Source: an uncultured Thermoplasmata archaeon (GTDB lineage Archaea; Thermoplasmatota; Thermoplasmata; GCA-020350865). Taken from it: DNA of 24,000 nucleotides. Below the pieces are notes generated by a model that was not told the origin of the DNA, made no database searches, and saw only the letters and a list, made by a program, of their open reading frames with translations. Below are positions 3,396 to 19,938 of the stretch, piece by piece. Where the stretch lies: NCBI GenBank assembly GCA_965372465.1, contig CBDVCK010000006.1, positions 12,258 to 36,257 of the forward strand. Reading direction: 5' to 3'. How positions within the stretch are numbered: position 1 is the stretch's first letter; each line of letters opens with the position of its first letter. The position numbers and the translations under genes were made by a program.

Positions 3396-4682
3396 TTATT
3401 TTTCGGCAACTAGTTTTGCAATCTCGATTATCACAAAAGCCCCTTTCTCCATGGATTGTACCGGTATGAACTCCTTTTTACCATGGAAGTTTATCCCACC
3501 GGCAAAGATATTGGGTGTGGGAAGGCCCATAAAACACAGCCTGGCACCGTCTGTTCCACCGCGTATGTTTTTCAAATTAGGCTCAAGGCCAATCCTTTTA
3601 CAGGCCTCTAATACGATGTCAAGTACATGGGGGTGCTTGTCAAGTACTTCCTTCATATTCCTGTAGGAATCCTTAATTTCGATATCTATTTCGATTTTCG
3701 GGAACTGTTCGTTAACCTTGTCCTTGATTTCCTCAAGTATCCTCTGTTTTTCTTCCATACCCGAATCATTGAAATCACGGATCAAAATCTTGATTGTGGT
3801 TCTCTCAACACCTCCTTTAAAGGAATTTGGATGAAGGTACCCCTCCCAGCCCTCTGTGGTTTCTGGTGCCATGTCCTGCGGGAGAAGGGTTATAAAGAGT
3901 CCTGCAGCTCTCATGGAATTCCTCATCTTGTTCTTGGCGTATCCTGGATGCACGTTGTAGCCTTTTACTGTGACTTTTGCTGTTTGTGCGTTGAAAGTCT
4001 CGTTCTCGACCTCGCCGATTTCACCACCATCTATGGTGTATGCAAAATCAGCTCCAAACCTGTTTATATCAAAAAAATCTGTTCCTTTGCCAACTTCCTC
4101 ATCAGGTGTAAAAGCCACTTTTATCTTACCATGCTTTATTGATGGATCAGTTACCATTGTTTCCAATGCAGTCATAATTTCAGCCACACCTGCCTTGTCA
4201 TCCGCACCAAGTAAGGAGATACCATTGGAAGTGATGATATCCTGTCCAATGTAATCTTTAAGCTCTGGATTCTCTGCAGGGGATATCGTTACATCCCCTT
4301 TTGGAAGTATAATCTCGTTTCCTTGGTAATTTTTCCAAATAATTGGATCTGTGGCCCCCGACACATCTGGTGAGGTATCCATATGGGCCATAAAACCCAC
4401 CACTGACTTTTCTTCAAATCCAGGACTGGATGGGAGTGTGGCCATTACATAACAATTTTCAGAAACCTCTGCATCCAAAAGGCCTATTTTTTTTAATTCT
4501 TCTGCCAACATATTCGCTAGATTATATTGTTTCTCGGAAGAGGGGACATTATCTACCTCGTACTCCGATTGGGTGTCGATTTTTACATATCTTAGAAACT
4601 TGTTTACAACGGATTCTACCATAACATCACCAGGCCCATTATTTATAGGTAAATCAAGGTCTAATCTATTATAATTTGCCAT
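3396..4682 (-). CDS. pepT: Peptidase T (tripeptide aminopeptidase, M20B family)
   Basis: 428-aa ORF with FLRYVKIDTQSE, GFMAHMDTSPD, LLGADDKAGVAEIM, FTPDEEVG and GGTDGA motifs typical of PepT. An alternative start at Met21 (4622) is possible. Confidence 0.9.
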   Translation of the reverse strand: MANYNRLDLDLPINNGPGDVMVESVVNKFLRYVKIDTQSEYEVDNVPSSEKQYNLANMLAEELKKIGLLDAEVSENCYVMATLPSSPGFEEKSVVGFMAHMDTSPDVSGATDPIIWKNYQGNEIILPKGDVTISPAENPELKDYIGQDIITSNGISLLGADDKAGVAEIMTALETMVTDPSIKHGKIKVAFTPDEEVGKGTDFFDINRFGADFAYTIDGGEIGEVENETFNAQTAKVTVKGYNVHPGYAKNKMRNSMRAAGLFITLLPQDMAPETTEGWEGYLHPNSFKGGVERTTIKILIRDFNDSGMEEKQRILEEIKDKVNEQFPKIEIDIEIKDSYRNMKEVLDKHPHVLDIVLEACKRIGLEPNLKNIRGGTDGARLCFMGLPTPNIFAGGINFHGKKEFIPVQSMEKGAFVIIEIAKLVAEK

Positions 4683-4711
4683 TTTATATCTTGTATAATA
4701 AAATATGATAC

Positions 4712-4766
4712 GGGCAGTGGAATCTTTTTATGTTAATTGCATTTGAAACAGCAGGTCTCCACTGCC
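4712..4766 (-). terminator. 9-bp inverted repeat (ggcagtgga/tccactgcc, 37-nt spacer) with T-rich flanks on both sides
   Basis: Read directly: gggcagtgga at 4712-4721 and tccactgcc at 4758-4766. It lies between the stop of the 71-aa gene and the pepT promoter. The long loop makes it a weak terminator candidate. Confidence 0.3.
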
Positions 4767-4874
4767 TATTTTTAATATGCGCATGCTTATTCGGAAGCTG
4801 CGTATTTATGCAACCCCAAATTGATATGAACGCTGTCTACCAACCATATGGCCGTAGAGGAGTGAATATTGGGT

Positions 4875-5090
4875 TTATTTCCTTGCCATCTTCGCTTCCG
4901 CCACATATCCTTTCTTGTCGAGGTAGTACATGTGACCTTTCTTTTTACTGATCTTCTCTGATCCAACTTTTTTCTTTCTGCCGCGTTTGTTCGATTTCAT
5001 TGGTGCACGCCATACATATCCATCTTTTCCGACATAATAAAGATAGCCGGACTCTCTTTTAATTTGCTCACTTCCTATTCGTTTTCCCAT
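4875..5090 (-). CDS. Small, highly basic protein (71 aa) built from an internal tandem duplication; candidate nucleic-acid-binding protein
   Basis: Strong SD (AAGGAGGT, 7-nt spacing) and an adjacent TATA-like gtatatatta. 22 of 71 residues are K/R against 6 D/E. Residues 6-32 and 43-69 align at 13 of 27 positions (GSE.I....G..YY..K.GYV..A.M). Confidence 0.7.
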   Translation of the reverse strand: MGKRIGSEQIKRESGYLYYVGKDGYVWRAPMKSNKRGRKKKVGSEKISKKKGHMYYLDKKGYVAEAKMARK

Positions 5091-5344
5091 CAGGAAACCT
5101 CCTTAATATATACCCTATAACGCGTTCGAGGTATATTAATTTTTTATCGACGGGGAAATCGAGAGAAACCATAAAAAAACCGCGAATCTCGGGCTAAAAT
5201 GCGCTTTTTACTCTTATTGAGCAGGTAGATTTACTGATTTTTATTTGATCCTTTTCAATGACCTGAATTTAATTATGAAAAAACGTCGATATCTTTCAAA
5301 ATATTGTTGAAAAACGATTATAAATTTTCGTCAAATGACGATAA

Positions 5345-5354
5345 TTTTTATATA
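5345..5354 (+). promoter_or_regulatory. TATA-box candidate for fhs
   Basis: tttttatata sits ~40 nt upstream of the ATG at 5393. This would place the transcription start site (TSS) just upstream of the GGGGAGGT SD (5381-5388). Confidence 0.4.
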
Positions 5355-5392
5355 TTCATAATCATATGCCCCGCAACACAGGGGAGGTAAAT

Positions 5393-7111
5393 ATGAAATC
5401 TGACCTAGAAATAGCTCAAGAAGCGAAGCTTAAACCTATTATAGAGATTGCAAAATCTATGGGATTAGAAGAAGACGATATAGAAATGTACGGTAAATAT
5501 AAAGCTAAGATTAAACTCGAACTCTTGGAGAAATTAAAGGACAGACCGTATGGTAAGTACATTGATGTCACAGCAACAACACCCACACCACTTGGTGAGG
5601 GGAAGACAGTAATTAACATTGGACTGACACAGGCTCTTGCCAAGATAGGTAAGAATGTTATAAGCACTTTAAGAGAACCAAGTATGGGGCCTGTTTTCGG
5701 AATCAAGGGTGGCGCAGCAGGTGGAGGTTACGCCCAAGTTGTGCCCATGGAGGATATCAACCTGCATTTTACAGGTGATATCCATGCCGTTGGTGTTGCC
5801 AATAACCTGCTTGCAGCAATGATAGATAACCAGTTGTTCCACCCAAAATTCAAGAGGAAGAACCTGCTGAACATCGACCCGAATTCAATAACGTGGAGAA
5901 GGGTTGTGGATCTGAACGATAGCGCATCCACCAACATCGACATTGGGACTGTATCAAAGCATGAAACCACGGGCTATCCAAGAGATACAGGCTTTGATAT
6001 TACAGTGGCATCCGAGGTTATGGCAATTCTGGCCCTTGCAACCGATCTCAAGGATCTAAGACAAAAGCTCGGAAAAATCATTGTTGCCAAAGATAAGGAT
6101 GGAAAACCCATAACCGCCGAGGATCTGAAAGCGGCAGGAGCCATGGCCGTTGTTATGAAACAGGCGTTGAAACCAAATCTTGTTCAGACCTTGGACAATG
6201 TTCCATGCATAATGCATGCCGGTCCTTTTGCAAACATCGCTATCGGGAACAACTCAATAATTGCTGATAGAATCGCATTGAGATTGGCGGATTATGTGGT
6301 CACAGAAAGTGGTTTTGCTGCTGACTGCGGCGCCGAGAAATTCCTCAATATCAAATGCCGCATAGCAGGTCTTAAACCGGATTGTATAGTGCTTAATACA
6401 ACTATCAGATCCCTTAAGATGCATGGCGGTGGATACGAGTTCCCACCAGGCAAGACACCGCCAAAAGAGGTCATGTTCGGTGAGAACGTAGACGCTGTAA
6501 GAAAGGGTTGTGTCAACCTTGCCAAGCATATAGAGAACATGAAGAAGTTCGGAGTACCAACCGTGGTTTGTATAAACAGATTCACACCTGACACAGATGC
6601 AGAGGTTGAGGCAGTTACTGAAGAGGCGGGGAAGGCTGGAGCGGATGCCTGTGTTCCTGTCACAGTCTGGGCAGATGGCGGGGATGGTGGAATCGAACTT
6701 GCAAAAGCCGTGGTCGAGGCTTGCGAGAAACCCAACAATTTCAAATTGCTTTACCCGGACGATATGCCAATTCGGGGAAAGATCGAAACCCTGGCAAAGG
6801 AGATCTACGGTGCCGATGGAGTGGAGTTTTCCGAGCTTGCCGAGGAGAAGATGAAGCTTTACACTGAGTGGGGTCTTGATAAGTTGCCAATTTGCATGGC
6901 AAAGACCCATCTATCAATAAGCCACGATCCCACAAAATTGGGTGCACCCAGCGGTTTCATGTTCCCGATAAGGGATATCAGACCTTCTGCCGGAGCAGGT
7001 TTCCTGTACCCGCTGGCAGGGGAGATGAGAACCATGCCTGGCATGCCTTCCCATCCTGCGTCTGAGAATGTGGATATTGATAAGAACGGCAAGACCGTTG
7101 GATTGTTCTAA
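5393..7111 (+). CDS. fhs: Formate--tetrahydrofolate ligase (formyl-THF synthetase)
   Basis: MKSDLEIAQEAKLKPI..., TPTPLGEGKTV, EPSMGPVFGIKGGAAGGGY, GPFANIAHG-like GPFANIAIGNNS and CMAKTHLS motifs. I moved the start from the track's 5366 to the ATG at 5393, which has a GGAGGT SD 5 nt upstream. Confidence 0.95.
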   Translation: MKSDLEIAQEAKLKPIIEIAKSMGLEEDDIEMYGKYKAKIKLELLEKLKDRPYGKYIDVTATTPTPLGEGKTVINIGLTQALAKIGKNVISTLREPSMGPVFGIKGGAAGGGYAQVVPMEDINLHFTGDIHAVGVANNLLAAMIDNQLFHPKFKRKNLLNIDPNSITWRRVVDLNDSASTNIDIGTVSKHETTGYPRDTGFDITVASEVMAILALATDLKDLRQKLGKIIVAKDKDGKPITAEDLKAAGAMAVVMKQALKPNLVQTLDNVPCIMHAGPFANIAIGNNSIIADRIALRLADYVVTESGFAADCGAEKFLNIKCRIAGLKPDCIVLNTTIRSLKMHGGGYEFPPGKTPPKEVMFGENVDAVRKGCVNLAKHIENMKKFGVPTVVCINRFTPDTDAEVEAVTEEAGKAGADACVPVTVWADGGDGGIELAKAVVEACEKPNNFKLLYPDDMPIRGKIETLAKEIYGADGVEFSELAEEKMKLYTEWGLDKLPICMAKTHLSISHDPTKLGAPSGFMFPIRDIRPSAGAGFLYPLAGEMRTMPGMPSHPASENVDIDKNGKTVGLF

Positions 7112-7149
7112 GGCAGAATTGAGGGGGGACCTTCGCCTTTCATTACCAT

Positions 7150-7181
7150 TGCCCCGTACGGGGCATTTTTTTCTTTTTTTT
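7150..7181. terminator. Bidirectional terminator between convergent fhs and xpd
   Basis: Perfect 16-nt palindrome tgccccgtacggggca (7150-7165) followed by T7-C-T8. The T-run overlaps the xpd stop codon. Confidence 0.55.
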
Positions 7182-9099
7182 ATTCCTTAAAAAAATCCCT
7201 GCAGTCCTTGATTAAATCCACACTTGTTTTCAGATCGGGGATATAACTCTTAAAATGTTTTGCCCGGTTATCGAGGATTACCGCAACACCTCTGTCCTTT
7301 TTATCCCTTATCAATCTGCCCAGGGTCTGCAAGAGCCTTCTCGTTGTGGGGGCTTTTACGGCATAATCCCAGCCCTTTTTGAATTTTCTATCATAAAATA
7401 TCTCCAGGGCCTTTTGTTTGGCTGAAGGTCTTGGATAGGGTATTCCAACAATCACCAAAAGCTCCATCTGCTTTGCGGGATAGTCAATCCCCTCGCTGAG
7501 TCTTCCCCCGATAACAGATAACAGGATTGCACCATCTTTTGACCCTGATTTGAAACCTTCCACCACATCCATTAGCTGCGATTGAGTCATTCCCTGCTGT
7601 TCAATAAAACATCTTTTATCAAGTGCGAATTGTAAACCGTTTCTTAAGAATAGATCCATGAGTCTGAAACTGGGGAAAAAGATAGCCGTGTTCTTATCAA
7701 ATGCCTTACTCAGATTCACGAGGTAATCTCCCATCTTGGGTATCAGATTCGAATCCCTTACAACATCCTCGAACCTTGTAGTCACATCGCTTACATATAA
7801 AACAATCCTGTTTTCCCTGGGAAAAGGCGAGGGGAAGGTGGCCATTTTTGAATCAAAAGGAAGACTCACAGAATCTCGATATTCTTCAAGTGGAGAAAGT
7901 GTTCCCGACATATGAATGGAGGCATGACAATCCAAAAGCGGCTGCGTTACCAAAGCCGGTTCAAGACAGTAAGTCTCAAGCTTCGTATTATCATGATCAT
8001 GTATTAATTTAATGAAATTCTCATCCTGCTTCTCCATCCAGAATGACAGGAACTGTCCCACCGAATGGATGTAGGAACGGGGAAGCAATCCATCCTTCAG
8101 CCTTACTTCCTTTATGATCTGGCCGTGTATGATTAGATCGCTTGCCATGGCTTTTATCTTTCTGCTTGTGGTACTGTAGCCCTGCATTAGTTCCGAAAGA
8201 AATTCACCTGGGGGAATGAATGCGTCTTCCTGACCCATGCTTAGGTATTCACTCTTAAAAGATACGATTATTTCTTCTATCCTATCCATAAGTTCCGAAA
8301 CAAACATTCCATCCGATGTTCTCAGATTTCCAAACTCCAAAGCTTCCTTTTTTCCAATCTTGAGTGTTGCAAGACCCAGTTCCATGGATTCGATTTCCCT
8401 TGCATAATCAGGAAGATTATGGGCTTCGTCAATGATAAGTATCATATCTTGGATTGCGCAATCCATCCATTCGAGAAATCGGGTTCTTATAAAGGGATTG
8501 AAAAAATAGATATATGGAGCACAAACCAAAGCTGCCTCCTTAATCGATGATTTATTCACTTCATAGGGACAGAAACCGAATTCATCGCATTTTTCCACGA
8601 ACTCTTCCACGGTAGGAAGGGTATCAGAAGCCCAGTTTTTTATATCTGAAATGTCCCCGATGCATATTTTTGCATAGTACTTACAAGATATCTGTTTTCC
8701 GCCTTCTGAAATGGACTTTAAAACCTCCATCTTCTTCTTACTGCATATCTTTGAGAGCTCGTCCGGAGAGCCACCCGTAAGTTGTGAATCGTGTTTCAGT
8801 TGCGGACACATCTGATGTCTGCCCTGAACACCCAGGCCGAAGATCTTCTCTTTTTTATTGATTTGTCGAAGCTCGTATAGAACCTGTCTTTGTTGGGAAT
8901 TGGTCCTGGTGAGATAAAGCACCCTTTTTTCGTTTCCTATTGCGTATTCCAGGGCCGGAACAAGGGCACAGACCGTCTTTCCGGAACCGGTTTTCGATTC
9001 AAGGACCAGATGCGATTTTGTGTCCACTGTATCCTTTATGAGGTTTAAAATTTCCAGCTGGTTCTTTCTTGGTTCGTACGGGAATAGTGAATGGACCAT
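7180..9099 (-). CDS. xpd: XPD/Rad3-family 5'-3' DNA helicase (SF2, Fe-S cluster domain)
   Basis: 639 aa. Walker A TGSGKT, DEAH box (IIDEAHNL), and a Cys cluster in the N-terminal insert (HQMCPQ, KICSKK, SCKYY, FCPYE). The C-terminal half is the helicase domain (GRLSEGIDY, GRLIR). Confidence 0.9.
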   Translation of the reverse strand: MVHSLFPYEPRKNQLEILNLIKDTVDTKSHLVLESKTGSGKTVCALVPALEYAIGNEKRVLYLTRTNSQQRQVLYELRQINKKEKIFGLGVQGRHQMCPQLKHDSQLTGGSPDELSKICSKKKMEVLKSISEGGKQISCKYYAKICIGDISDIKNWASDTLPTVEEFVEKCDEFGFCPYEVNKSSIKEAALVCAPYIYFFNPFIRTRFLEWMDCAIQDMILIIDEAHNLPDYAREIESMELGLATLKIGKKEALEFGNLRTSDGMFVSELMDRIEEIIVSFKSEYLSMGQEDAFIPPGEFLSELMQGYSTTSRKIKAMASDLIIHGQIIKEVRLKDGLLPRSYIHSVGQFLSFWMEKQDENFIKLIHDHDNTKLETYCLEPALVTQPLLDCHASIHMSGTLSPLEEYRDSVSLPFDSKMATFPSPFPRENRIVLYVSDVTTRFEDVVRDSNLIPKMGDYLVNLSKAFDKNTAIFFPSFRLMDLFLRNGLQFALDKRCFIEQQGMTQSQLMDVVEGFKSGSKDGAILLSVIGGRLSEGIDYPAKQMELLVIVGIPYPRPSAKQKALEIFYDRKFKKGWDYAVKAPTTRRLLQTLGRLIRDKKDRGVAVILDNRAKHFKSYIPDLKTSVDLIKDCRDFFKE

Positions 9100-11654: not shown

Positions 11655-12722
11655 ATGGTCGAAGAGGACAGCATTAAAAAATGGCTTGAGGAATACGATA
11701 GGGACAATTTGGTTATATCAACATTATGTTCCCATACGAGCCTTCAGATTTTTAACGGTGCCCGAAAAGAGGGGTTCAGGACTCTGGGTATTTCAATCGG
11801 TCCCCCTTCCAAATTCTATGAAGCCTTCCCCAACGGAAAACCTGATGAATTTTTCGTGGTGGACAATCACAAGGCCATTTTGGATAAGGCTGAGGAACTT
11901 CGAGAGAAAAACGCAATCCTGATTCCTCATGGCTCCTTTGTTGAGTACCTGGGTTCCGAAAATTTCGAGAAAATCGAGGTTCCCACATTCGGAAACAGGA
12001 AAGTCCTTAACTGGGAGTCATCAAGGATCAAAGAAAGGGAATGGCTGGAAAGTGCCGGGGTTAACATGCCCGGATTGTTCCACAGCCCGGAGAAAATCGA
12101 CAGGCCTGTTGTTGTTAAGTTCGACGGGGCCAAAGGTGGAAGAGGCTTTTTTATAGTGAAAAATTTTGAGGAATTCAAAAAGGTCAATCCCACTGAGAAA
12201 TACAGCATCCAGGAATATGTCCTTGGAACCAGATACTACCTGCACTATTTCTACTCTCCCATAAAAGAAGAAGGGTACAAACTCTCCAAAGGAACCCTGG
12301 AATTACTTTCCATTGACAGACGGGATGAGACCAATATCGATGAGATGTACAAACTGGGTTCCCAGGAGGAACTGAAAAAATTGGATATCTATCCCAGTTT
12401 TGTTGTAACGGGTAATGTACCATTGACAATCAGAGAATCCCTTTTAAATGAAGTGTTGGACATGGGGGAAAAGGTGGTGGAGAAATCTTTCGAGCTTTTC
12501 GGGGGTATAATCGGACCCTTCTGTCTTGAGACCATAGTGAACGACAAACTGGAATTCAAGGTGTTCGAGGTCTCGGCAAGGATTGTAGCAGGTACCAATC
12601 CATTCATCTCGGGATCGCCATATTCTGATTTTGTGGCCCCGAACCTTTCCACAGGGAGGAGAATCGCCCAGGAGATCTTGATGGCAGATGAGCTGGACCG
12701 ATTGGATGAGGTTCTGAGCTGA
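11655..12722 (+). CDS. purP: 5-formaminoimidazole-4-carboxamide ribonucleotide (FAICAR) synthetase, formate/ATP-dependent (ATP-grasp)
   Basis: 355 aa. ISTLCSHTSLQIFNGARKEGFRTLGI at the N-terminus and a C-terminal ATP-grasp half (FEVSARIVAGTN) are typical of archaeal PurP. There is no SD. An A/T box ~30 nt upstream suggests a leaderless mRNA. Confidence 0.9.
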   Translation: MVEEDSIKKWLEEYDRDNLVISTLCSHTSLQIFNGARKEGFRTLGISIGPPSKFYEAFPNGKPDEFFVVDNHKAILDKAEELREKNAILIPHGSFVEYLGSENFEKIEVPTFGNRKVLNWESSRIKEREWLESAGVNMPGLFHSPEKIDRPVVVKFDGAKGGRGFFIVKNFEEFKKVNPTEKYSIQEYVLGTRYYLHYFYSPIKEEGYKLSKGTLELLSIDRRDETNIDEMYKLGSQEELKKLDIYPSFVVTGNVPLTIRESLLNEVLDMGEKVVEKSFELFGGIIGPFCLETIVNDKLEFKVFEVSARIVAGTNPFISGSPYSDFVAPNLSTGRRIAQEILMADELDRLDEVLS

Positions 12723-12740
12723 GAAAATTCATTTTTATCC

Positions 12741-14297
12741 TCAATGTTTAAACAGCCTGACTCCTGAAAATACCATGGACACACCGTGCTCGTTGGCTGC
12801 TGCAATGACCTCGTCGTCCCTTACAGAACCGCCTGGCTGGATAATGGCTGCAACTCCGAATTTTGCTGCCGCGTCAATACCGTCTCTGAACGGGAAGAAT
12901 GCATCAGACGACATCACACTGCCCTTGGCTGCATCCCCCGCCTTGCGTGCCGCAATCATGGAGGCGTCAACCCTGCTCATCTGTCCTGCTCCGATACCCA
13001 CGGTCTGCTCACCTTGGGCAAGGAGAATGGAATTTGATTTCACATGTTTTAGGACTTTACATGCAAATACCATGGTTTTTAGCTCTGCTTCAGTGGGTTT
13101 CTTTTCTGTTACAACTTTTAGCTCCTCCAATTTCAAATCCGGAAATGCACCCGTCTGGACCAAAAGACCGCCTTTCACCTTCATCATCTTGTGCTCCACT
13201 GGTGACTCGCGGACAATGACTGTTCCGGTCTTAAGCAGCCTGATGCTTTTCTTCTTGGAGAGAAGCTCCATTGCATCGGGATGAAAGTCAGGAGCAATTA
13301 CCGCTTCCACGAAATGCTTCTTTATCTCCTCTGCTGTTGCCAAATCACAGTCCCTGTTCAATCCAACCACGCTTCCGAAGGCGGAAAGTGAATCCGCAGC
13401 CTCAGCGATTCTGTACGCTTCTGAAATTGAATCGGAACTTGCCACACCGCATGGGTTGGTGTGTTTGATAACGGATGATGTGGGCCTTTCAAAATCCATC
13501 ACTATATCCAATGCGGAATCCAAATCTATGATATTATTGAACGAAAGCTCCTTTCCATGAAGCTTTGTGGCATTACCCACACATACCCCCTGGAACCTGG
13601 TATTCCTGTAAAAGGCCGCCTTCTGATGAGGGTTTTCCCCGTATCTCAGATCCAATGCCTTCTCGTACCCCAGACTCATGACCTCCGGGAAGGGTTGAGC
13701 CGGTGTAAATTTCTTCTGGAGATAGTCAGAAATAATGCTGTCGTATTTTGCTGTATGCTCAAAGGCCTCAAGTGCAAGCTTGGATGAAAAATCATTTGAA
13801 ATACCACCACTGTTGTTCCTAAGCTCGTCGAGGATTTCGCTATATCTGCCTGGATTTACAACCACAGCCACTCCATTATGATTCTTTGCAGCAGAACGTA
13901 TCATAGTGGGGCCACCGATGTCGATGTTCTCCACCGCTTCTTCAATACTTACATCCTTCTTTTTTATTGTTTGCTCGAAGGGATAGAGATTAACGACAAC
14001 CATGTCTATTGGTGTGATGCCGTGCTCGGCAAGCTGCGACATATGTTTTTCAGAATCCCGCATGGCAAGTATGCCCCCGTGAACAAGTGGATGAAGCGTT
14101 TTTACCCTTCCGTTCAGCATCTCAGGAAATTTTGTGTACTCTGAAACCAGTGTTACAGGCACTCCTTTTTCCTTAAGAAGCTTTGCTGTGCCTCCGGTGG
14201 ACAATATATCCACATCAAGACCCGCAAGACCTTTTGCAAATTCCACAATACCATCCTTATCCGAAACACTAATCAATGCGCGATTTACCTTGATCAA
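12741..14297 (-). CDS. purH: Bifunctional AICAR formyltransferase / IMP cyclohydrolase
   Basis: 518 aa. N-terminal MGS-like cyclohydrolase domain (ALISVSDKDGIVEFAK...STGGTAK...GRVKTLHP). C-terminal transformylase domain (YGENPHQ, GAGQMSRVD, SDAFFPFRDGID, IIQPGGSVRD). Confidence 0.95.
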   Translation of the reverse strand: MIKVNRALISVSDKDGIVEFAKGLAGLDVDILSTGGTAKLLKEKGVPVTLVSEYTKFPEMLNGRVKTLHPLVHGGILAMRDSEKHMSQLAEHGITPIDMVVVNLYPFEQTIKKKDVSIEEAVENIDIGGPTMIRSAAKNHNGVAVVVNPGRYSEILDELRNNSGGISNDFSSKLALEAFEHTAKYDSIISDYLQKKFTPAQPFPEVMSLGYEKALDLRYGENPHQKAAFYRNTRFQGVCVGNATKLHGKELSFNNIIDLDSALDIVMDFERPTSSVIKHTNPCGVASSDSISEAYRIAEAADSLSAFGSVVGLNRDCDLATAEEIKKHFVEAVIAPDFHPDAMELLSKKKSIRLLKTGTVIVRESPVEHKMMKVKGGLLVQTGAFPDLKLEELKVVTEKKPTEAELKTMVFACKVLKHVKSNSILLAQGEQTVGIGAGQMSRVDASMIAARKAGDAAKGSVMSSDAFFPFRDGIDAAAKFGVAAIIQPGGSVRDDEVIAAANEHGVSMVFSGVRLFKH

Positions 14298-14430: not shown

Positions 14431-14466
14431 CTAAAACCATTGCGGGCAACAAGGAGAGGAGAAAAA

Positions 14467-15246
14467 ATGTTAGTGATAAGCGAACGTATCAACGGTTTAT
14501 TCAAATCGGTGGGAAAGGCAATTGAGGAGAAAAATGCTGAGGCAATTCAACAACTAGCCTTGGAACAGGTAAAGGCTGGCTCAGATATACTGGATTTGAA
14601 CACAGGACCAGGCATGGATAATGAACCAGAGGTTATGGAGTGGCTGGTAAAAACGATTCAGGATGTCACAGATGTCCAGCTTTCCATTGATACCCCCAAG
14701 CCCGAGGCAATGGAAGCTGGTTTGAAGGCCGTGAACAAGAAGGCACTTTTGAATTCGACAACTGCGGAACAAAGCAGGATGGAGGCACTTTTTCCCCTTG
14801 TAAAGGAGTACGATGCAGAGGTAGTATGCCTCACACTTGATGAGAAAGGTATACCTAATGATGCCATGAAAAGAAATGAGCTGGCAATGCTCATGATCAC
14901 AACGGCAATGGGATATGATATTCCAACGGATAACATCTACATTGACCCACTTATCCTTCCGGTGGGGGCTGCTCAAAATCAGGGTCCATTGGTCATCGAG
15001 GCAATAAACATGTTCAAAATGCTTTCTGATCCCGCACCCAAGACCGTTGTCGGTTTAAGCAACATCTCCAATGGAGCAAAGCAAAGATCCCTCCTAAACA
15101 GAACATACCTTGCCATGCTAATGGGGGCAGGTCTCACAGCGGCAATCATGGATCCCAATGATGAGGAACTGATGAAGATAGCAAAAACTGGAGACATATT
15201 GCTCAACAAGAGTCTGTATGCCCATGATTATCTGCAGGTTAGGTAA
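14467..15246 (+). CDS. acsE: Methyltetrahydrofolate:corrinoid methyltransferase (pterin-binding, AcsE/MeTr family)
   Basis: From the ATG at 14467 (the track starts at a TTG at 14440) the protein is colinear with Moorella AcsE as I remember it: ML(V/I)I(S/G)ERING, LDLN(T/V)GP, MEWLV, INST, LYIDPLILP, LADPAPKTV(V/L)GLSN(I/V)S, NRT(Y/F)LAM. The symbol is given by homology only. The physiological partner is unknown. Confidence 0.8.
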   Translation: MLVISERINGLFKSVGKAIEEKNAEAIQQLALEQVKAGSDILDLNTGPGMDNEPEVMEWLVKTIQDVTDVQLSIDTPKPEAMEAGLKAVNKKALLNSTTAEQSRMEALFPLVKEYDAEVVCLTLDEKGIPNDAMKRNELAMLMITTAMGYDIPTDNIYIDPLILPVGAAQNQGPLVIEAINMFKMLSDPAPKTVVGLSNISNGAKQRSLLNRTYLAMLMGAGLTAAIMDPNDEELMKIAKTGDILLNKSLYAHDYLQVR

Positions 15247-16685: not shown

Positions 16686-16735
16686 TCAACATTGAGAATA
16701 AAGATTCATGTAAATCTATTTTGCTATCCTTAAAA

Positions 16736-16761
16736 AATAGCCCCGGGTGGATTCAGGAACC
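16736..16761 (-). repeat. Orphan duplicate of the 3' end (T-loop to 3 nt past the discriminator) of the adjacent tRNA-Gln-like gene
   Basis: aatagccccgggtggattc (16736-16754) is identical to 16845-16863. Similarity continues as aggaacc versus gaacc with a 2-nt indel. Same orientation as the tRNA, ~90 bp downstream of it. Confidence 0.8.
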
Positions 16762-16784
16762 CGCTTTTTTCATAAAAAAGTGGG
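16760..16784 (-). terminator. Hairpin with U-run downstream of the glnS-proximal tRNA
   Basis: cccgctttttt-cat-aaaaaagtggg forms an 11-bp stem with one G.U pair. Either strand reads a stem containing a T6 run. Confidence 0.5.
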
Positions 16785-16846
16785 CCAAATAAAGGGCATC
16801 TGTTTTGGGAAATTGATAATATCCGATAGCCCGAAATGTGAAATAA

Positions 16847-16920
16847 TAGCCCCGGGTGGATTCGAACCACCGTCTCGGGATCCAGAATCCCGAATGATTG
16901 ACCAGCTACAATACGGGGGT
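16847..16920 (-). tRNA. tRNA-Gln(CUG)-like, divergent; possibly a pseudogene
   Basis: The minus strand folds as ACCCCCG UA UUGU AGCUGGUCAA UCAU U CGGGA UUCUGGA UCCCG AGAC GGUGG UUCGAAU CCACC CGGGGCU A (74 nt). The anticodon and T arms are perfect, with GG in the D loop and an A1-U72 pair. Defects are a C2.C71 mismatch, a D stem with only 2 Watson-Crick pairs (U10, U22), and discriminator A73. Confidence 0.6.
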
Positions 16921-17014
16921 ATTTGGCTTAGACATTACTGGTATCAAATACCCCCTATTAGTCAGAAAAGTGCCTGGAGGATGTCGAATTTTCTTTTCTT
17001 ACTACTACGGGGCT
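16915..17014 (-). promoter_or_regulatory. Two-hairpin upstream module, copy a (H2 + H1 + orphan tRNA-Gln 5' fragment)
   Basis: H2: gggggtatttg (16915-25) / caaataccccc (16945-55), perfect 11 bp with a 19-nt loop. H1: gtcagaaaag (16961-70) / cttttcttac (16993-17002), 9 of 10 bp with a 22-nt loop. The fragment tactacggggct (17003-14) reads AGCCCCGUAGUA on the minus strand. Confidence 0.6.
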
Positions 17015-17074
17015 TTTTGATTTGTAAGGTATGTGAAAATAAAGTTAAAACTTTATTATTTCAAAAGGGCGGTT

Positions 17075-18760
17075 CTATTTCTTCTGCTGCTGCTTCTGAA
17101 TCTTGGCCCAGGTGTCCCGAAGGCCTACTGTCCTATTGAAGACCAGTTTTTCTGATATCGAATCTGGGTCCACGCAGAAGTACCCCAAACGCTCGAACTG
17201 TATTCTATCAAGTGGCTTTAAATCCTTAACTGCCGGCTCCACCTTGCACCGTGAGAGCACCTCAAGAGAGTTGGGGTTTATGAAATCCTTGAAATTTGCA
17301 TCCTTCTGCCCAGACGGATCAGGTACCGTGAACAGCTTGTCGTATAGTCTTACCTCGCAATCCAGGGCATGGGCAGCTGAGACCCAGTGAAGCGTGGATT
17401 TAACCTTGCGTCCATCGGGAGCGTTGCCCCCTTTGGTTTCTGGATCCACTGTGCATCTGAGCTCGACAATCTTCCCATCCTCCTTTATGGCTTCCTTGCA
17501 GGAAACAAAATAAGCATATCTGAACCTGACCTCCCTTCCAGGAGCCAATCTGTAGAATTTCTTGGGGGGGTCCTCCATGAAATCCTCCTGCTCTATGTAG
17601 AGCTCCCTGGAAAAAGGGACCTTACGGGTTCCGGCTTTTGGGTCCTCTGGATTGTTCACTGCCTCCATATCCTCTGTTTTATCTTCAGGATAATTTTCGA
17701 TAACCACCTTCAATGGACGAAGAACTCCCATGAACCTTGGAGCCGTTTTATTAAGGTCGTCACGGACGCAGTGCTCCAAGAATTCGAAATCTACATTACT
17801 GTTGACCTTGGCCACTCCGATTCGCTTGGCAAAGGCCCGAATCGCGGAAGGTGAATAACCGCGTTTTCGTATACCACTTATAGTAGGTAGTCTTGGATCG
17901 TCCCACCCCGAAACATGGCCTCCATCCACCAACATCTTAAGCAAGCGTTTACTCATCACAGTATAGGTAATGTTCAACCTTGCAAACTCGATCTGCTGTG
18001 GATGATATACCTCTATTTGATCTAAAAACCAATCGTACAGGGGTCTATGGTTTTCAAACTCCAATGTGCAAATGGAATGGGTGATGTTCTCAATGGAATC
18101 TTCAAGTCCATGGGCCCAGTCGTACATTGGATATATACACCATTTATCACCTGTATTATGATGGCTGGCATGTAAGATCCTATAGACAATGGGGTCCCGC
18201 ATGTTCATATTGGGGTGAGTCATATCTATCTTGGCCCGTAGCACCTTTTCACCATCGCCAAATTCCCCGGCCCTCATGCGTTCGAAAAGGTCAAGATTCT
18301 CCTCAATTGAGCGGTTTCGATAGGGGCTGTTCTCTCCGGGAGTGGTCCAGGTCCCGCGTGTTTTGCTAATCTCTTCGGCTGTTGAATCGTCAACGTAAGC
18401 CTTGCCTTTTTTTGTTAATTGCACTGCATATTCGTACATCTGATCAAAATAATCTGATGCGAAAAAGAGTCTGTCTTCCCAATCGAATCCAAGCCAGCGG
18501 ACATCCTCGATAATGGATTTTACATATTCCTCCTCTTCCTTGGCAGGATTAGTATCGTCGAACCTCAAATTGCACTTGCCTTTGTATTCCTCTGCAATCC
18601 CGAAGTTCAGGCAGATGGACTTTGCATGTCCGATGTGGAGGTAGCCGTTGGGCTCAGGGGGGAATCTGGTGTGCACTCTTCCTCCGTATTTGTTGGTTCT
18701 CAGGTCTTCATTGATGATGTCGCGGATGAAATCGCGTCTTGAAGGTTCTTTTTCACTCAT
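17075..18760 (-). CDS. glnS: Glutaminyl-tRNA synthetase, bacterial type
   Basis: From the ATG at 18760 ([20 protein letters not shown]...) the 561-aa protein is colinear with E. coli GlnS as I remember it: [27 protein letters not shown] (HIGH), [26 protein letters not shown] (KMSKS), [39 protein letters not shown]. The track's 40-codon N-terminal extension (to 18880) runs into repeat A1 and is not credible. Confidence 0.92.
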
Positions 18761-18800
18761 AATGAGTCCCCAGTTGTTTAAAAGGTCTATAATTGTTTTC

Positions 18801-18812
18801 ATTATAAATATT
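18801..18812 (-). promoter_or_regulatory. TATA-box candidate for glnS
   Basis: The minus strand reads aatatttataat ~45 nt upstream of the ATG at 18760, between element A1 and the start codon. Confidence 0.4.
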
Positions 18813-18839
18813 TGGGTTAAACTCTCAAATGTAAAGAAA

Positions 18840-18905
18840 CAGCCCCGGCCACCTGAGTCTTTAAGAACCCAGCTCTTCAAAGAATAATGTGAAGTTGAAA
18901 GGGCT
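18840..18905 (-). repeat. A1: degenerate copy of the 66-nt tRNA-Gln acceptor-mimic element
   Basis: Same length and ends as A2 and A3 (...GGUGGCCGGGGCUG 3'). The 5' end has decayed to AGCCC-UUU-CAAC, which leaves an A.G mismatch in the second helix. Confidence 0.5.
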
Positions 18906-18933
18906 CTGCTGAATTATAGCATTTTAAAAAGGA

Positions 18934-18999
18934 CAGCCCCGGCCACCTGAGTGCTTAAGAACCCATTATATCTCAACATAACACGAAGGTGAAGGGGCT
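18934..18999 (-). ncRNA. A2: 66-nt tRNA-like element carrying the tRNA-Gln acceptor ends; candidate structured RNA
   Basis: Minus strand: AGCCCC UU CACC [40 nt] GGUG GCC GGGGCU G. It begins 32 nt after the tRNA-Gln(UUG) 3' end and is followed by CCUUUUUAAAA. Confidence 0.4.
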
Positions 19000-19031
19000 G
19001 CTCTGATTAAATGCTTATAAAAGTAGAAGAG

Positions 19032-19102
19032 CAGCCCCGGCCAGAATCGAACTGGCGCTAAGGGATCCAAAGTCCCTTATGCTACCGCTACACCACGGGG
19101 CT
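19032..19102 (-). tRNA. tRNA-Gln(UUG), no intron
   Basis: AGCCCCG UG GUGU AGCGGUA GCAU A AGGGA CUUUGGA UCCCU UAGC GCCAG UUCGAUU CUGGC CGGGGCU G. This is a clean cloverleaf of 71 nt with A1-U72, G10 and discriminator G73. CCA is not encoded. Confidence 0.9.
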
Positions 19103-19192
19103 TTTCTGATATATATGTTATATTCAAAGCCCCTAGCAGTAAAAAAAGTGCTCGGATATTGTTGGGTTTCCTTTTTTTACCACCACGGGGCT
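19097..19192 (-). promoter_or_regulatory. Two-hairpin upstream module, copy b
   Basis: H2: ggggcttt (19097-104) / aaagcccc (19126-33), 21-nt A/T-rich loop. H1: gtaaaaaaag (19139-48) / ctttttttac (19171-80), perfect 10 bp with a 22-nt loop. The fragment caccacggggct (19181-92) equals the first 12 nt of the tRNA. Confidence 0.6.
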
Positions 19193-19256
19193 ATGATTAT
19201 TGCGAATTACAGCGAAATAGGCCCGGGGGCTGGAGGGAAACCGATTCTCAGTATTT
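19181..19256 (-). repeat. C1: conserved element (24-nt and 35-nt cores identical to C2)
   Basis: caccacggggctatgattattgcg (19181-204) and cccgggggctggagggaaaccgattctcagtattt (19222-56) are identical to 19688-711 and 19730-64. The 17-18 nt between the two cores has diverged. Confidence 0.7.
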
Positions 19257-19358
19257 ATTAGATAGTTTACCTCCTCATGCTTAAGACCCCAGGGCTAAAT
19301 AGCACAATACTGGGGGTAAAGGACTGATGCATATTTATACTTTTTAAATTGAATTAAA

Positions 19359-19368
19359 AGCCCCGGCC
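19359..19368 (-). repeat. Isolated tRNA-Gln 3' acceptor fragment
   Basis: agccccggcc is identical to the first 10 nt (plus strand) of the A elements and both tRNA-Gln genes. It lies 19 nt before A3. Confidence 0.5.
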
Positions 19369-19386
19369 CAACGAATTTTGTTTATA

Positions 19387-19452
19387 CAGCCCCGGCCATC
19401 TGAGTGCTTAAGAATTAAGCATTTCCCAACATAACACGAAGATGCAGGGGCT
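19387..19452 (-). ncRNA. A3: 66-nt tRNA-like element carrying the tRNA-Gln acceptor ends; candidate structured RNA
   Basis: Minus strand: AGCCCC UG CAUC [40 nt] GAUG GCC GGGGCU G. Compared with A2, the second helix carries a compensatory C-G to U-A change. The inner 40 nt keeps 14-nt conserved blocks at each end (UUCGUGUUAUGUUG, UUCUUAAGCACUCA). Confidence 0.4.
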
Positions 19453-19483
19453 GTTTCGAATATTAGCTATTAAAAGATAGAAA

Positions 19484-19606
19484 CAGCCCCGGCCAGAATC
19501 GAACTGGCGCCAAGAGATCTCTCCGCTCCGCAGGAGCGTTTGCCCCTCGAATATTTCATATTCTGCGGGTCCAGAGTCTCTTATGCTACCGCTACACCAC
19601 GGGGCT
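19484..19606 (-). tRNA. tRNA-Gln(CUG) with a 52-nt intron at the canonical 37/38 position
   Basis: Exon 1 is 19606..19571 (AGCCCCGUGGUGUAGCGGUAGCAUAAGAGACUCUGG). The intron is 19570..19519. Exon 2 is 19518..19484 (AUCUCUUGGCGCCAGUUCGAUUCUGGCCGGGGCUG). The spliced product is 71 nt. It matches the UUG gene except in the anticodon arm and variable loop. CUCU/GGAG pairing places G37|A in a bulge, and the intron contains a CCGCAG/CUGCGG helix. Confidence 0.85.
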
Positions 19607-19699
19607 ATTTGAATTAGCATTGTTGGGTGCAAATAACCCCAAGCAAAAAGAAAAGTGTTGGGTTGATGCTGGTTGTTCTTTTCTTTTCACCACGGGGCT
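19601..19699 (-). promoter_or_regulatory. Two-hairpin upstream module, copy c
   Basis: H2: ggggctattt (19601-10) / aaataacccc (19631-40), 20-nt loop. Its one non-Watson-Crick position is a U.G wobble only in the minus-sense RNA. H1: aaaagaaaag (19646-55) / cttttctttt (19678-87), 22-nt loop. Fragment caccacggggct (19688-99). Confidence 0.6.
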
Positions 19700-19764
19700 A
19701 TGATTATTGCGTATTACCAGTGTAATAGACCCGGGGGCTGGAGGGAAACCGATTCTCAGTATTT
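19688..19764 (-). repeat. C2: conserved element, second copy
   Basis: See C1. The minus-sense internal hairpin GGG(C/U)CUAU-N22/23-AUAGCCCC is retained in both copies, with one internal mismatch in each. Confidence 0.7.
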
Positions 19765-19784
19765 CCAAACAGTTTGCCTCAAAG

Positions 19785-19885
19785 ACCACGGGGCTTTTCA
19801 GTTATATATGCTATATTCAAAGCCCCTAGCAGTAAAAAAAGCAACTGGAGATTACTGGAAATTCTTTTTTTACTACCACGGGGCT
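19785..19885 (-). promoter_or_regulatory. Two-hairpin upstream module, copy d; it has no tRNA body attached
   Basis: 5' fragment accacggggct (19785-95). H2: ggggcttt (19790-97) / aaagcccc (19819-26). H1: gtaaaaaaag (19832-41) / ctttttttac (19864-73). Next fragment taccacggggct (19874-85), followed by a decayed copy accaccacggaact (19889-902). Confidence 0.6.
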
Positions 19886-19938
19886 TTTACCACCACGGAA
19901 CTATTTTATAAATCGGAATGGATAAACGGTTATAAAAA

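Follow-up and report, generated by a model that had tools for sequence, protein, structure and literature searches.

A bacterial-type GlnRS gene linked to tRNA-Gln genes in a Thermoplasmata-labelled archaeal clade

We analysed a 24,000-nucleotide stretch of DNA (the window) from an uncultured Thermoplasmata archaeon (GenBank assembly GCA_965372465.1, contig CBDVCK010000006.1, positions 12,258 to 36,257 of the forward strand), in which glnS, a gene for glutaminyl-tRNA synthetase (GlnRS), lies among tRNA-Gln genes. The locus is probably the glutamine-decoding centre of this archaeon, with an old GlnRS of bacterial derivation, the indirect GatDE route alongside it, and tRNA genes wrapped in hairpins. 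That Archaea lack GlnRS is a standard textbook statement; reviews from 2020 to 2022 give the enzyme as absent from archaeal genomes, and from this absence it has been argued that GatDE and the tRNA-Gln of archaea coevolved into a barrier against GlnRS transfer (PMC9499178, PMC8762117, PMC7373986). Full-text literature searches brought up no description of an archaeal GlnRS clade, and the genes are already named GlnRS by PGAP and IMG in public metagenome-assembled genomes (MAGs). An earlier note on this DNA, made from the sequence alone, had allowed for a widespread, already described archaeal clade; the clade is indeed widespread but is described only through automatic database names.

Results

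The window encodes a full-length bacterial-type GlnRS

glnS is the open reading frame (ORF) at 17075-18760 on the minus strand and encodes 561 amino acids, starting MSEKEPS. The protein scored 751.7 bits against the NCBIfam glnS model TIGR00440, above the equivalog cutoff of 425.8, whereas the archaeal GluRS model TIGR00463 gave 367.1 bits, under its cutoff of 401.75, and gltX_bact gave 78.9 bits. In a phmmer search of the PDB, residues 3-554 aligned end to end with residues 2-551 of the Escherichia coli GlnRS chain (E=1e-215), with 58% identity across 547 residues; Pseudomonas aeruginosa GlnRS was also aligned, and eukaryotic GlnRS and GluRS scored far lower. These results agree with the earlier note, which had taken the gene for a full-length GlnRS colinear with the E. 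coli enzyme and not for a GluRS. Both C-terminal anticodon-binding barrels are present (Pfam PF03950 and PF20974), the alignment reaching E. coli residue 551. The best-scoring NCBIfam model was the GlnRS/YqeY fusion NF011291 (876 bits), matched from profile position 11 to 564 out of 769. As the match stops there and residue 561 is the last of the protein, a YqeY/GatB-like C-terminal domain is absent; the PGAP name "glutamine--tRNA ligase/YqeY domain fusion protein", attached to proteins of this type (P0007, P0020, P0033, and others), is therefore misleading.

The class I motifs HIGH (residues 42-45) and MSKR (residues 269-272, within VMSKR) are invariant in all 121 clade sequences described below. 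The same is true, in the window and in 121/121 clade sequences, of the equivalents of E. coli R30, Y211, C229, and Q255, which we take from the E. coli GlnRS complex to form the glutamine pocket, and of R341, R402, R410, R412, Q517, and R520, which we likewise take to contact the anticodon. Two other positions differ from E. coli. The equivalent of E. coli D235 (window residue 237) is Asn in 114 of the 121 clade members; among 76 bacterial relatives it is Asp in 44 and Asn in 14. We presume D235 to be an acceptor-stem reader in E. coli GlnRS whose replacement by Asn relaxes specificity, the D235N variant being that of PDB 1QRS. At the equivalent of L136 (window residue 138), which corresponds to the residue that wedges the 1:72 pair, Trp is found in the window and in 15 other clade members. 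Against the closest bacteria, clade-specific signature residues amounted to five weak positions, none with a known role. Judged by its sequence, the window gene is a full-length, catalytically complete bacterial-type GlnRS; it is intact, its checked residues are invariant, and it is not a relic. Separately, an 832-aa protein on a 6.5-kb ENA contig (P0245) scored nearly as high as the 565-aa GlnRS of the L084 type; its extra length may reflect an extension at either terminus or an error in gene calling.

glnS is fixed beside tRNA-Gln genes across a large archaeal clade

The GlnRS clade comprises at least 120 database clusters that are 79 to 100% identical to the window protein, and a search from the divergent member P0106 added about 40 further clusters, for a total above 150. 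Named members all come from MAGs labelled Thermoplasmata, Thermoplasmatales, or Methanomassiliicoccales, bar one labelled "Petrotogales bacterium". The contig of the latter (L118, JBMCVV010000159.1) has an archaeal context, RTC-CinA-tRNAGln-glnS-tRNAGln x2-FlpD, and shares RTC-CinA-tRNAGln-glnS-tRNAGln with two closed genomes that carry a Thermoplasmatales label; most likely, this is an archaeal contig wrongly binned into a bacterial MAG.

We compared 11 independent archaeal loci (designated by L numbers), drawn from NCBI, JGI, ENA, and Logan and including five closed chromosomes: CP070751.1 (5.16 Mb) and four others of 4.23, 3.22, 2.32, and 1.92 Mb. A tRNA-Gln gene lies on the same strand within about 300 nt of glnS in 11/11 loci; in the simplest arrangement, tRNA-Gln(CUG) is followed after 35 to 70 nt by glnS and then by tRNA-Gln(UUG). 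The bacterial comparison set came from a genome-collection scan with the GlnRS protein, which returned bacterial loci alone among the matches listed. Only 6 of 50 bacterial glnS loci had a tRNA-Gln gene within 4 kb (Fisher p=1e-7, calculated with the first 10 archaeal loci, which are not phylogenetically independent). The tRNAs beside bacterial glnS genes are ordinary ones with U1-A72 and bear no relation to the archaeal tRNAs, which argues that the tRNAs were not cotransferred with glnS. For the tRNA downstream of glnS in particular, cotransfer from bacteria was considered and ruled out, given its A1-U72 pair, its archaeal features, and the very different bacterial glnS-adjacent tRNA-Gln genes.

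The neighbours of glnS in the window are archaeal, as the earlier note had stated: they include class I LysRS (lysS_arch, 542 bits), 4-phosphopantoate--beta-alanine ligase, PurP, and Rad3/XPD, but the ArcTGT that it had also named was not found among the ORFs scanned. The gene order in the window is CN-hydrolase/PRT/LysRS/tRNA-Gln/glnS/tRNA-Gln/297-aa ORF/flavodoxin/pterin-binding methyltransferase/PurH/PurP. Synteny comparison, which had been proposed as a check, showed that this order recurs in CP070751.1 and in JGI contigs; it is nearly exact in that closed chromosome and in one JGI contig, and it is kept only in part in the other fetched archaeal loci. Relative to the window, the extra gene content of the relatives' locus is a small glyoxalase-family gene only. 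This gene lies on the opposite strand between the H2 hairpins described below and glnS in L081 (5491-5850), L082, L083, L090, L101, and L102, and it is missing from the window. No integrase or mobile-element gene was found in the locus, where glnS is the sole gene between LysRS and the 297-aa ORF.

The acquisition of glnS is old

Outside the clade, the closest GlnRS proteins are bacterial, with 62 to 73% identity (Pirellulales, Sumerlaeota, Bacteroidota, Chloroflexota, and others, among the matches listed). In a neighbor-joining tree, the 121 clade sequences were monophyletic and nested among bacterial GlnRS, with planctomycete, Sumerlaeota, Hydrogenedentota, and Dehalococcoidales sequences as the sister group. 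This topology fits a transfer of glnS from a bacterium to an archaeon, and the nesting agrees with the horizontal acquisition that had been proposed for the gene.

The GC content of glnS (0.474) and its GC at third codon positions (0.537) are inside or close to the ranges of its neighbours. Compared with its relatives, glnS has a dN of 0.07 to 0.14 and a pS of 0.74 to 0.89, which means that synonymous sites are saturated. Neighbour-like composition, saturated synonymous sites, and low dN together indicate that the acquisition is old and that the gene has been under strong purifying selection. Among close relatives, GlnRS identity (86 to 88%) tracks that of PurH (87 to 88%) and PurP (84%), which points to vertical inheritance of glnS within the sublineage of the window. 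A private or recent acquisition by this contig is contradicted by the large Thermoplasmata-labelled clade, its conserved synteny, the neighbour-like GC, and the saturated synonymous sites.

Two families of tRNA-Gln genes flank glnS

Rfam and ARAGORN found three tRNAs in the window, all of them tRNA-Gln, all on the minus strand like glnS, and all with A1-U72, matching the three genes on both flanks of glnS that had been reported before. Two near-identical type I genes lie upstream of glnS and carry the discriminator G73: tRNA-Gln(UUG) at 19032..19102 (Rfam tRNA, 63.2 bits; ARAGORN) and tRNA-Gln(CUG) at 19484..19606 (Rfam tRNA, 48.7 bits over 123 nt), the latter with a 52-nt intron adjoining the anticodon. 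Orthologues of this CUG gene are intron-less in L081 and contain the intron in L101 and L102. Downstream of glnS, at 16847..16920 (minus strand; Rfam, 48.1 bits), is a tRNA-Gln(CUG) of a second family, t3, which has A73, a larger D-loop (GGTCAATC), a different body, and the T-arm GGTGGTTCGAATCCACC.

A t3 orthologue stands directly downstream of glnS in L081, L082, L100, L101, and L102 and, in a UUG form, in L118. In the window, the t3 tRNA has a C2.C71 mismatch (ACCCCCG/CGGGGCT) not found in relatives, which have G2 or a compensated AGCUCCG/CGGAGCU stem; the mismatch may represent an incipient pseudogene or a sequencing error. Intact t3 genes with compensatory acceptor-stem changes are present in L081, L100, L101, L102, and L118. 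In L084, a decayed t3-like tRNA-Gln(UUG) that ARAGORN did not call lies right after glnS (7740-7813), and an intact A73 version occupies the same place in L118 (2786-2860).

Type I tRNAs with G73 were found in the window, L081, L083, L084, L087, L090, L101, and L118, and t3 tRNAs had A73 in every copy examined. The tRNA-Gln discriminator is A73 in archaea and G73 in bacteria, and A1-U72 is listed among the recognition features of GatDE (PMC9499178). As candidate substrates of GlnRS, the window tRNAs combine A1-U72 with C3-G70. Together, the tRNA features and the enzyme residues suggest, but fall short of proving, mutual adaptation, with the tRNAs possibly divided between pathways.

GatD coexists with GlnRS in the closest relatives

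In L102, whose GlnRS is 85% identical to that of the window, a 430-aa gene (P0124) with GatD_N and asparaginase domains lies 1.2 kb downstream of glnS. A search with this protein found P0132 at about 4.116 Mb of CP070751.1 (5,156,303 bp), the chromosome bearing the syntenic glnS. P0124 and P0132 scored 556 to 574 bits against GatD equivalog models (cutoffs of 310 to 324) and hence pass as GatD; the closest relatives therefore have both glnS and gatD. The best 120 GatD matches included none from the closed genomes of 4.23, 3.22, 2.32, and 1.92 Mb.

Conserved hairpins surround the tRNA-Gln genes

In one sublineage (the window, L081 to L083, L090, and L100 to L102), each tRNA-Gln gene sits in a unit made of a hairpin termed H1, a spacer with a TATA-like sequence, the tRNA, an inverted repeat, and a second hairpin, H2. 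N runs mask some of the tRNA-Gln/hairpin region in two closed genomes (L082, 5155-5254; L083, 5150-5249), and copy counts for these two are lower bounds. All copies in the window are on the minus strand. H1 is 65 nt long. Its opening 12 nt are those that begin the adjacent tRNA, and its 3' end is GGGGCU; its stem of about 21 bp runs through an A-run and a T-run. The 5' arm tracks the neighbouring tRNA, with GTGGTG beside type I and GTAGTG beside t3. Copy a (16950..17014; model R2, 68.2 bits; z=-3.1) is upstream of the t3 tRNA, its 5' arm starting with the tRNA 5' end AGCCCCGTAGT; copy b (19128..19192; 84.3 bits; -27.3 kcal/mol, z=-4.5) is upstream of tRNA-Gln(UUG); copy c (19635..19699; 76.5 bits; z=-3.6) is upstream of tRNA-Gln(CUG); and copy d (19821..19885; 79.4 bits; z=-6.7) comes just after the LysRS stop codon. 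One copy thus lies left of glnS and three lie right of it, in keeping with the repeated module that had been noticed on both flanks.

H2 is 64 nt long, with the base AGCCCC/GGGGCU, resembling the tRNA-Gln acceptor stem and closing H1 as well, and the conserved core CGUGUUAUG-N17-CUUAAGCACG, and it occurs in three good copies and one degenerate copy. Its 3' end equals the last 11 to 13 nt of the tRNA, down to a T-stem base at which genomes differ (GGCC versus GGTC). Copy 1 (18935..18999; model R1, 74.5 bits; z=-2.2) has the base AGCCCC...GGCCGGGGCT, matching the tRNA ends, and the core CGTGTTATG-N17-CTTAAGCAC; copy 2 (18841..18905; 58.7 bits) is more diverged and abuts the upstream region of glnS; copy 3 (19388..19452; 74.6 bits; z=-2.5) is downstream of tRNA-Gln(CUG). 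A degenerate, truncated H2-like copy at 19264..19325 (19.2 bits, E about 0.1) has a full version in L090. Between tRNA and H2 is the inverted repeat. After tRNA-Gln(UUG), at 18994..19039, it pairs the 3' acceptor strand and trailer GGGGCTGCTCT with the complement AGAGCAGCCCC around a T-run or TATA-like loop, TTTTATAAGC; after tRNA-Gln(CUG), at 19444..19493, the arms are GGGGCTGTTTC and GAAACAGCCCC (pair I12, 14 nt, 93% complementary, 22 nt apart). The arms vary among copies and genomes yet stay complementary (GCTCT/AGAGC, GTTTC/GAAAC, ACTCT/AGAGT, and GTTAC/GTAAC).

Pairing was retained in both hairpins. In H1, 88% of cells were paired, compared to 48 to 70% with the partner slid, and in H2, 87% compared to 28 to 60%; each had 17 double-change cells, a number that 0/500 shuffles reached, and covariation scores were 0.198 versus 0.127 for H1 and 0.149 versus 0.069 for H2. 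As the copies are related to one another, this test of compensatory changes supports the structures without proving them. H1 folded better on the tRNA-sense strand in 15/16 copies (mean, -4.35 kcal/mol), and H2 had 51 G.U pairs in sense folds versus 23 in antisense folds. Even where synonymous sites are saturated between genomes, both hairpins can still be recognised. Searches of Rfam, at gathering and at E<=10 thresholds, matched only tRNA and no hairpin family; sigma-70 promoter and intrinsic-terminator scans are uninformative here, the host being an archaeon.

Covariance models derived from the hairpin copies (R2 for H1, R1 for H2) matched these tRNA-Gln loci and, in addition, a homologous module in four unrelated metagenome contigs near iteron-like repeats; they found no match in loci of the L084, L087, and L088 types, in the GatD locus, or in 14 bacterial loci. 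A metagenome scan for the H2 core yielded one true relative (L090), the four contigs that carry the homologous module outside a tRNA context, two intergenic hairpins that may or may not be related, and three chance matches. In those four contigs (L091, 1900-2200; L092; L095; L096), an inverted-repeat-plus-H2 module with other stem letters, GGATGTTCT/AGAACATCC, stands beside five iteron-like repeats of about 33 nt (AACGCTCAYRKTTCGTA) that are faintly T-arm-like, with no tRNA nearby.

tRNA end fragments and other repeats cluster around glnS

The 5'-end motif AGCCCCGTRGT has 7 copies, 2 of them inside tRNAs, and CCGGGGCT has 8 copies, 3 of them inside tRNAs. All tRNA-end copies are on the minus strand within 16739-19885, with a chance expectation of 0.4 to 0.6, and 0/100 shuffles reached the counts; GGCCGGGGCT occurs in 5 copies beyond the tRNAs, an isolated one being at 19356..19369 (minus strand). 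The earlier estimate of more than ten end fragments was about right, since there are 10 extra ones besides degenerate copies and the GGGGCT termini of H1. They are not simple debris but largely parts of the two conserved, covarying hairpin families.

Three other repeats, on the same strand where they lie in the window, are clear traces of copying at the DNA level. The last 29 nt or so of the t3 tRNA (T-arm and acceptor) recur as an att-like direct repeat 109 nt downstream, at 16732..16760 (family D9, 96%), with a counterpart in both L081 and L082. At 19785..19820, a copy of the promoter-like tRNA spacer and the first 11 nt of tRNA-Gln runs into unrelated sequence; it belongs to repeat family D4, in which 19785-19885 matches 19092-19192 over 101 nt at 84%. 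L101 has an 8-nt tandem duplication of the tRNA 5' end, AGCCCCGT-AGCCCCGT. A fourth repeat, D6 (47 nt), precedes H1 copy b (19210..19256) and H1 copy c (19718..19764), the pair being 94% identical; it shows no fold (z=+1.1), replaces the 3' part of an H2-like copy, and was not found in the other fetched loci or in viral contigs.

Matches of hairpin and tRNA-end sequences to viral contigs were mostly irrelevant: two to the H2 core were chance matches inside a phage coding region, those to the t3 3' end were unrelated phage tRNA-Met, and those to the type I 3' end were mostly phage tRNA-Glu and similar. Only L111 (IMGVR_UViG_3300004069_000013) was relevant, a tailed-virus contig with terminase and portal genes that ends (14180-14243) in a 3' fragment of about 60 nt of an archaeal-type tRNA-Gln(CUG), beginning near tRNA position 13. 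The contig end looks like a provirus att boundary at tRNA-Gln, which makes tRNA-Gln a plausible integration hotspot.

One further observation concerns purine synthesis. At window positions 11655-14297, PurP, the archaeal formate-dependent AICAR formyltransferase, adjoins bifunctional PurH, and a formate--tetrahydrofolate ligase (5366-7111) and a methyl-tetrahydrofolate:corrinoid methyltransferase-like gene (14440-15246) are nearby. Both routes for one purine step thus appear to be encoded in the window.

Discussion

The enzyme itself, a bacterial-type GlnRS, is ordinary; it stands out through its host domain, its archaeal-style substrates, its coexistence with GatD, and its fixed linkage to tRNA genes. 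We propose that an ancestor acquired a bacterial GlnRS gene, which became fixed directly beside or between tRNA-Gln genes and was then inherited mainly vertically under strong purifying selection. GlnRS most likely charges the archaeal-style A1-U72 tRNA-Gln directly with glutamine, and it would run beside the ancestral route of nondiscriminating GluRS (ND-GluRS) and GatDE without replacing it, at least in the closest relatives. The tRNAs would have adapted in part to the new enzyme, the two families possibly being split between the pathways. H1 and H2 may be RNA elements of the sense strand, born by partial duplication of tRNA ends, that punctuate the locus through RNase P and RNase Z cleavage and T-run terminators and so separate the LysRS, tRNA, and GlnRS transcripts. 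Stems kept by compensatory and wobble changes, persistence past neutral saturation, and identity bounded by tRNA termini favour a function at the RNA level; our best guess, held with modest confidence, is that the hairpins are acceptor-stem mimics serving as processing or termination punctuation.

Several observations weigh against parts of this interpretation. Charging of A1-U72 tRNAs by the window GlnRS is something that we infer from sequence. In L088, the type I tRNAs carry A73, so G73 is not universal, which weakens the ideas of adaptation and partition. The same locus (4195-9030) retains the order PRT-LysRS-tRNAGln-glnS-tRNAGln-PurP, its two flanking A73 tRNAs differing at the anticodon only, yet the window and L088 share 81% identity in GlnRS as against 30% in LysRS, 32% in PurP, and 59% in PRT; glnS could have moved between distant archaea, or the flanking genes could be other than orthologues. 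The neighbor-joining tree is midpoint-rooted and has no eukaryotic outgroup, and its bacterial sample consists of the closest 76 sequences. GatD was seen with glnS only in relatives whose GlnRS is 85 to 88% identical to that of the window. As for the hairpins, the H1 3' arm contains a run of 7 to 8 T that could stop transcription before the hairpin is complete. Moreover, the inner part of H2 in L083 (5410-5472) runs the opposite way from that of every other copy (CGTGCTTAAG...ATAACACG); this implies that the DNA between the two arms was inverted, an event at the DNA level. Finally, the identity of hairpin ends with tRNA ends covaries among genomes (GGCC versus GGTC), as DNA-level copying, by gene conversion or site-specific recombination, would also produce.

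The alternative that survives best is that the hairpins and end fragments are nonfunctional scars left at a tRNA-Gln hotspot by repeated rounds of site-specific integration and excision or by slippage, with glnS having arrived as cargo. We consider this possible though rather unlikely. The traces of DNA-level copying speak for it, namely, the att-like t3 repeat in three genomes, the promoter-plus-11-nt duplicate, the tandem duplication of the tRNA 5' end in L101, and the inversion of the H2 core in L083, as do the H2 3' ends and H1 5' ends that track the adjacent tRNA among genomes, the tailed-virus contig ending in an archaeal tRNA-Gln fragment, and the position of L088 glnS between near-identical tRNA-Gln genes. 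However, glnS stands alone between LysRS and the 297-aa ORF with no integrase or mobile-element gene, pairing is kept through compensatory changes and sense-strand G.U pairs, the blocks of identity are bounded by mature tRNA termini and not by arbitrary recombination points, and the elements have lasted in genomes whose neutral divergence is saturated. RNA function and DNA copying are not exclusive readings of the hairpins.

Replacement of the indirect pathway by GlnRS, in a self-contained direct-glutaminylation module that would make GatDE dispensable, is unlikely. The enzyme is clustered with all the tRNA-Gln genes seen, the A73-type tRNA beside glnS is decayed in L084 and mismatched at C2.C71 in the window, and four closed genomes contributed nothing to the best 120 GatD matches. 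On the other hand, GatD scores above the cutoff (556 and 574 bits versus 310) in the chromosome CP070751.1, which bears glnS, and 1.2 kb from glnS in L102, and five loci have an intact A73-type tRNA whose acceptor stem is compensated. Of the self-contained module proposed in the earlier note, the tight embedding of glnS among tRNA-Gln genes and fragments stands, and the replacement of the indirect route, which the note had implied, is not supported, GatD being present in two relatives.

A noncanonical role for the archaeal GlnRS homologue, in tRNA modification like GluQRS or in regulation, is very improbable: retention of GatD and the published view of archaeal tRNA-Gln as orthogonal to bacterial GlnRS (PMC8762117, PMC9499178) would accommodate it, but the protein is full length with both anticodon-binding barrels (PF03950 and PF20974), its checked catalytic, glutamine-pocket, and anticodon-contact residues are invariant in 121/121 sequences, its gene is tightly linked to tRNA-Gln, and conservation is very high, with dN much below dS. 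That the glnS region is an artefact of assembly or binning, or was inserted from a bacterium very recently, is suggested by the 58 to 73% identity with bacterial GlnRS and the one Petrotogales label but is almost certainly wrong, as the same junctions recur in 11 independent assemblies with five closed chromosomes among them, GC and GC3 are like those of the neighbours, synonymous sites are saturated among relatives, and the Petrotogales contig itself has an archaeal context; the window is no chimera and comes from an archaeal genome.

The preferred reading, an old bacterial-derived GlnRS beside the GatDE route, can be taken further. Decayed or mismatched A73 tRNAs hint that some sublineages could be midway through losing the old route. 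A broader scheme would have two parallel routes to Gln-tRNA-Gln throughout the lineage, GlnRS serving the derived, mostly G73 family and ND-GluRS/GatDE the A73 family located directly downstream of glnS, with route loss caught midway and H1 and H2 forming a new class of acceptor-stem mimics with a punctuating or regulatory role; this scheme is speculative and, taken whole, doubtful. A large Thermoplasmata-labelled clade with an intact, conserved GlnRS beside tRNA-Gln means that the proposed transfer barrier has been crossed, and it offers natural material for asking which features changed, such as G73 and C3-G70 in the tRNA and Asn at the D235 position in the enzyme. Further questions are whether the two pathways coexist stably or one is being lost and why glnS stays locked to tRNA genes. 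The system is also relevant to the engineering of orthogonal aminoacyl-tRNA synthetase/tRNA pairs. A second lead, of lesser weight, is offered by the hairpins, which are structured, specific to the lineage, and unmatched in Rfam.

Compared with known systems, the window protein shares with bacterial GlnRS (E. coli GlnS, PDB 1GTS and 1QRS; P. aeruginosa, 5BNZ) the full-length domain order, motifs, and checked residues. It differs in its archaeal host, in candidate substrates with A1-U72 and C3-G70 where bacterial ones have U1-A72 and G3-C70, in Asn at the D235 position in nearly all clade members, in Trp at the L136 position in the window, and in always lying beside tRNA-Gln genes. The Deinococcus-type GlnRS/YqeY fusion (NF011291, PDB 2HZ7) is the best-scoring model and the source of the PGAP name, but the archaeal protein is without its YqeY (GatB-like) tRNA-binding appendage. 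With the archaeal ND-GluRS and GatDE route, the locus has in common the product, Gln-tRNA-Gln, the presence of GatD in close relatives, and tRNAs that retain A1-U72; it adds a one-step direct route, and most type I tRNA-Gln have G73 in place of the archaeal A73 (PMC9499178).

Direct and indirect routes to an amide aminoacyl-tRNA are thus found in one genome here. Some bacteria likewise carry both GlnRS and Glu-tRNA-Gln amidotransferase; here the amidotransferase is the archaeal GatD(E) and the host belongs to the Archaea, in which reviews deny such coexistence. For the hairpins, an analogy may be drawn with the t-elements of plant mitochondria and mitochondrial tRNA punctuation: H1 and H2 likewise have acceptor-like stems at gene boundaries and are possible targets of RNase P or RNase Z. 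They are, however, simple long hairpins without a T-arm that copy the exact ends of the neighbouring tRNA and belong to the tRNA-Gln genes of one archaeal sublineage. The locus also resembles the att sites that archaeal integrative elements and proviruses use in tRNA genes, in its direct repeat of a tRNA 3' end downstream of an intact gene (16732-16760) and in the virus contig with a tRNA-Gln fragment; it differs from them in having no integrase or element body and in containing 5'-end fragments as well as inverted copies, neither of which results from simple integration.

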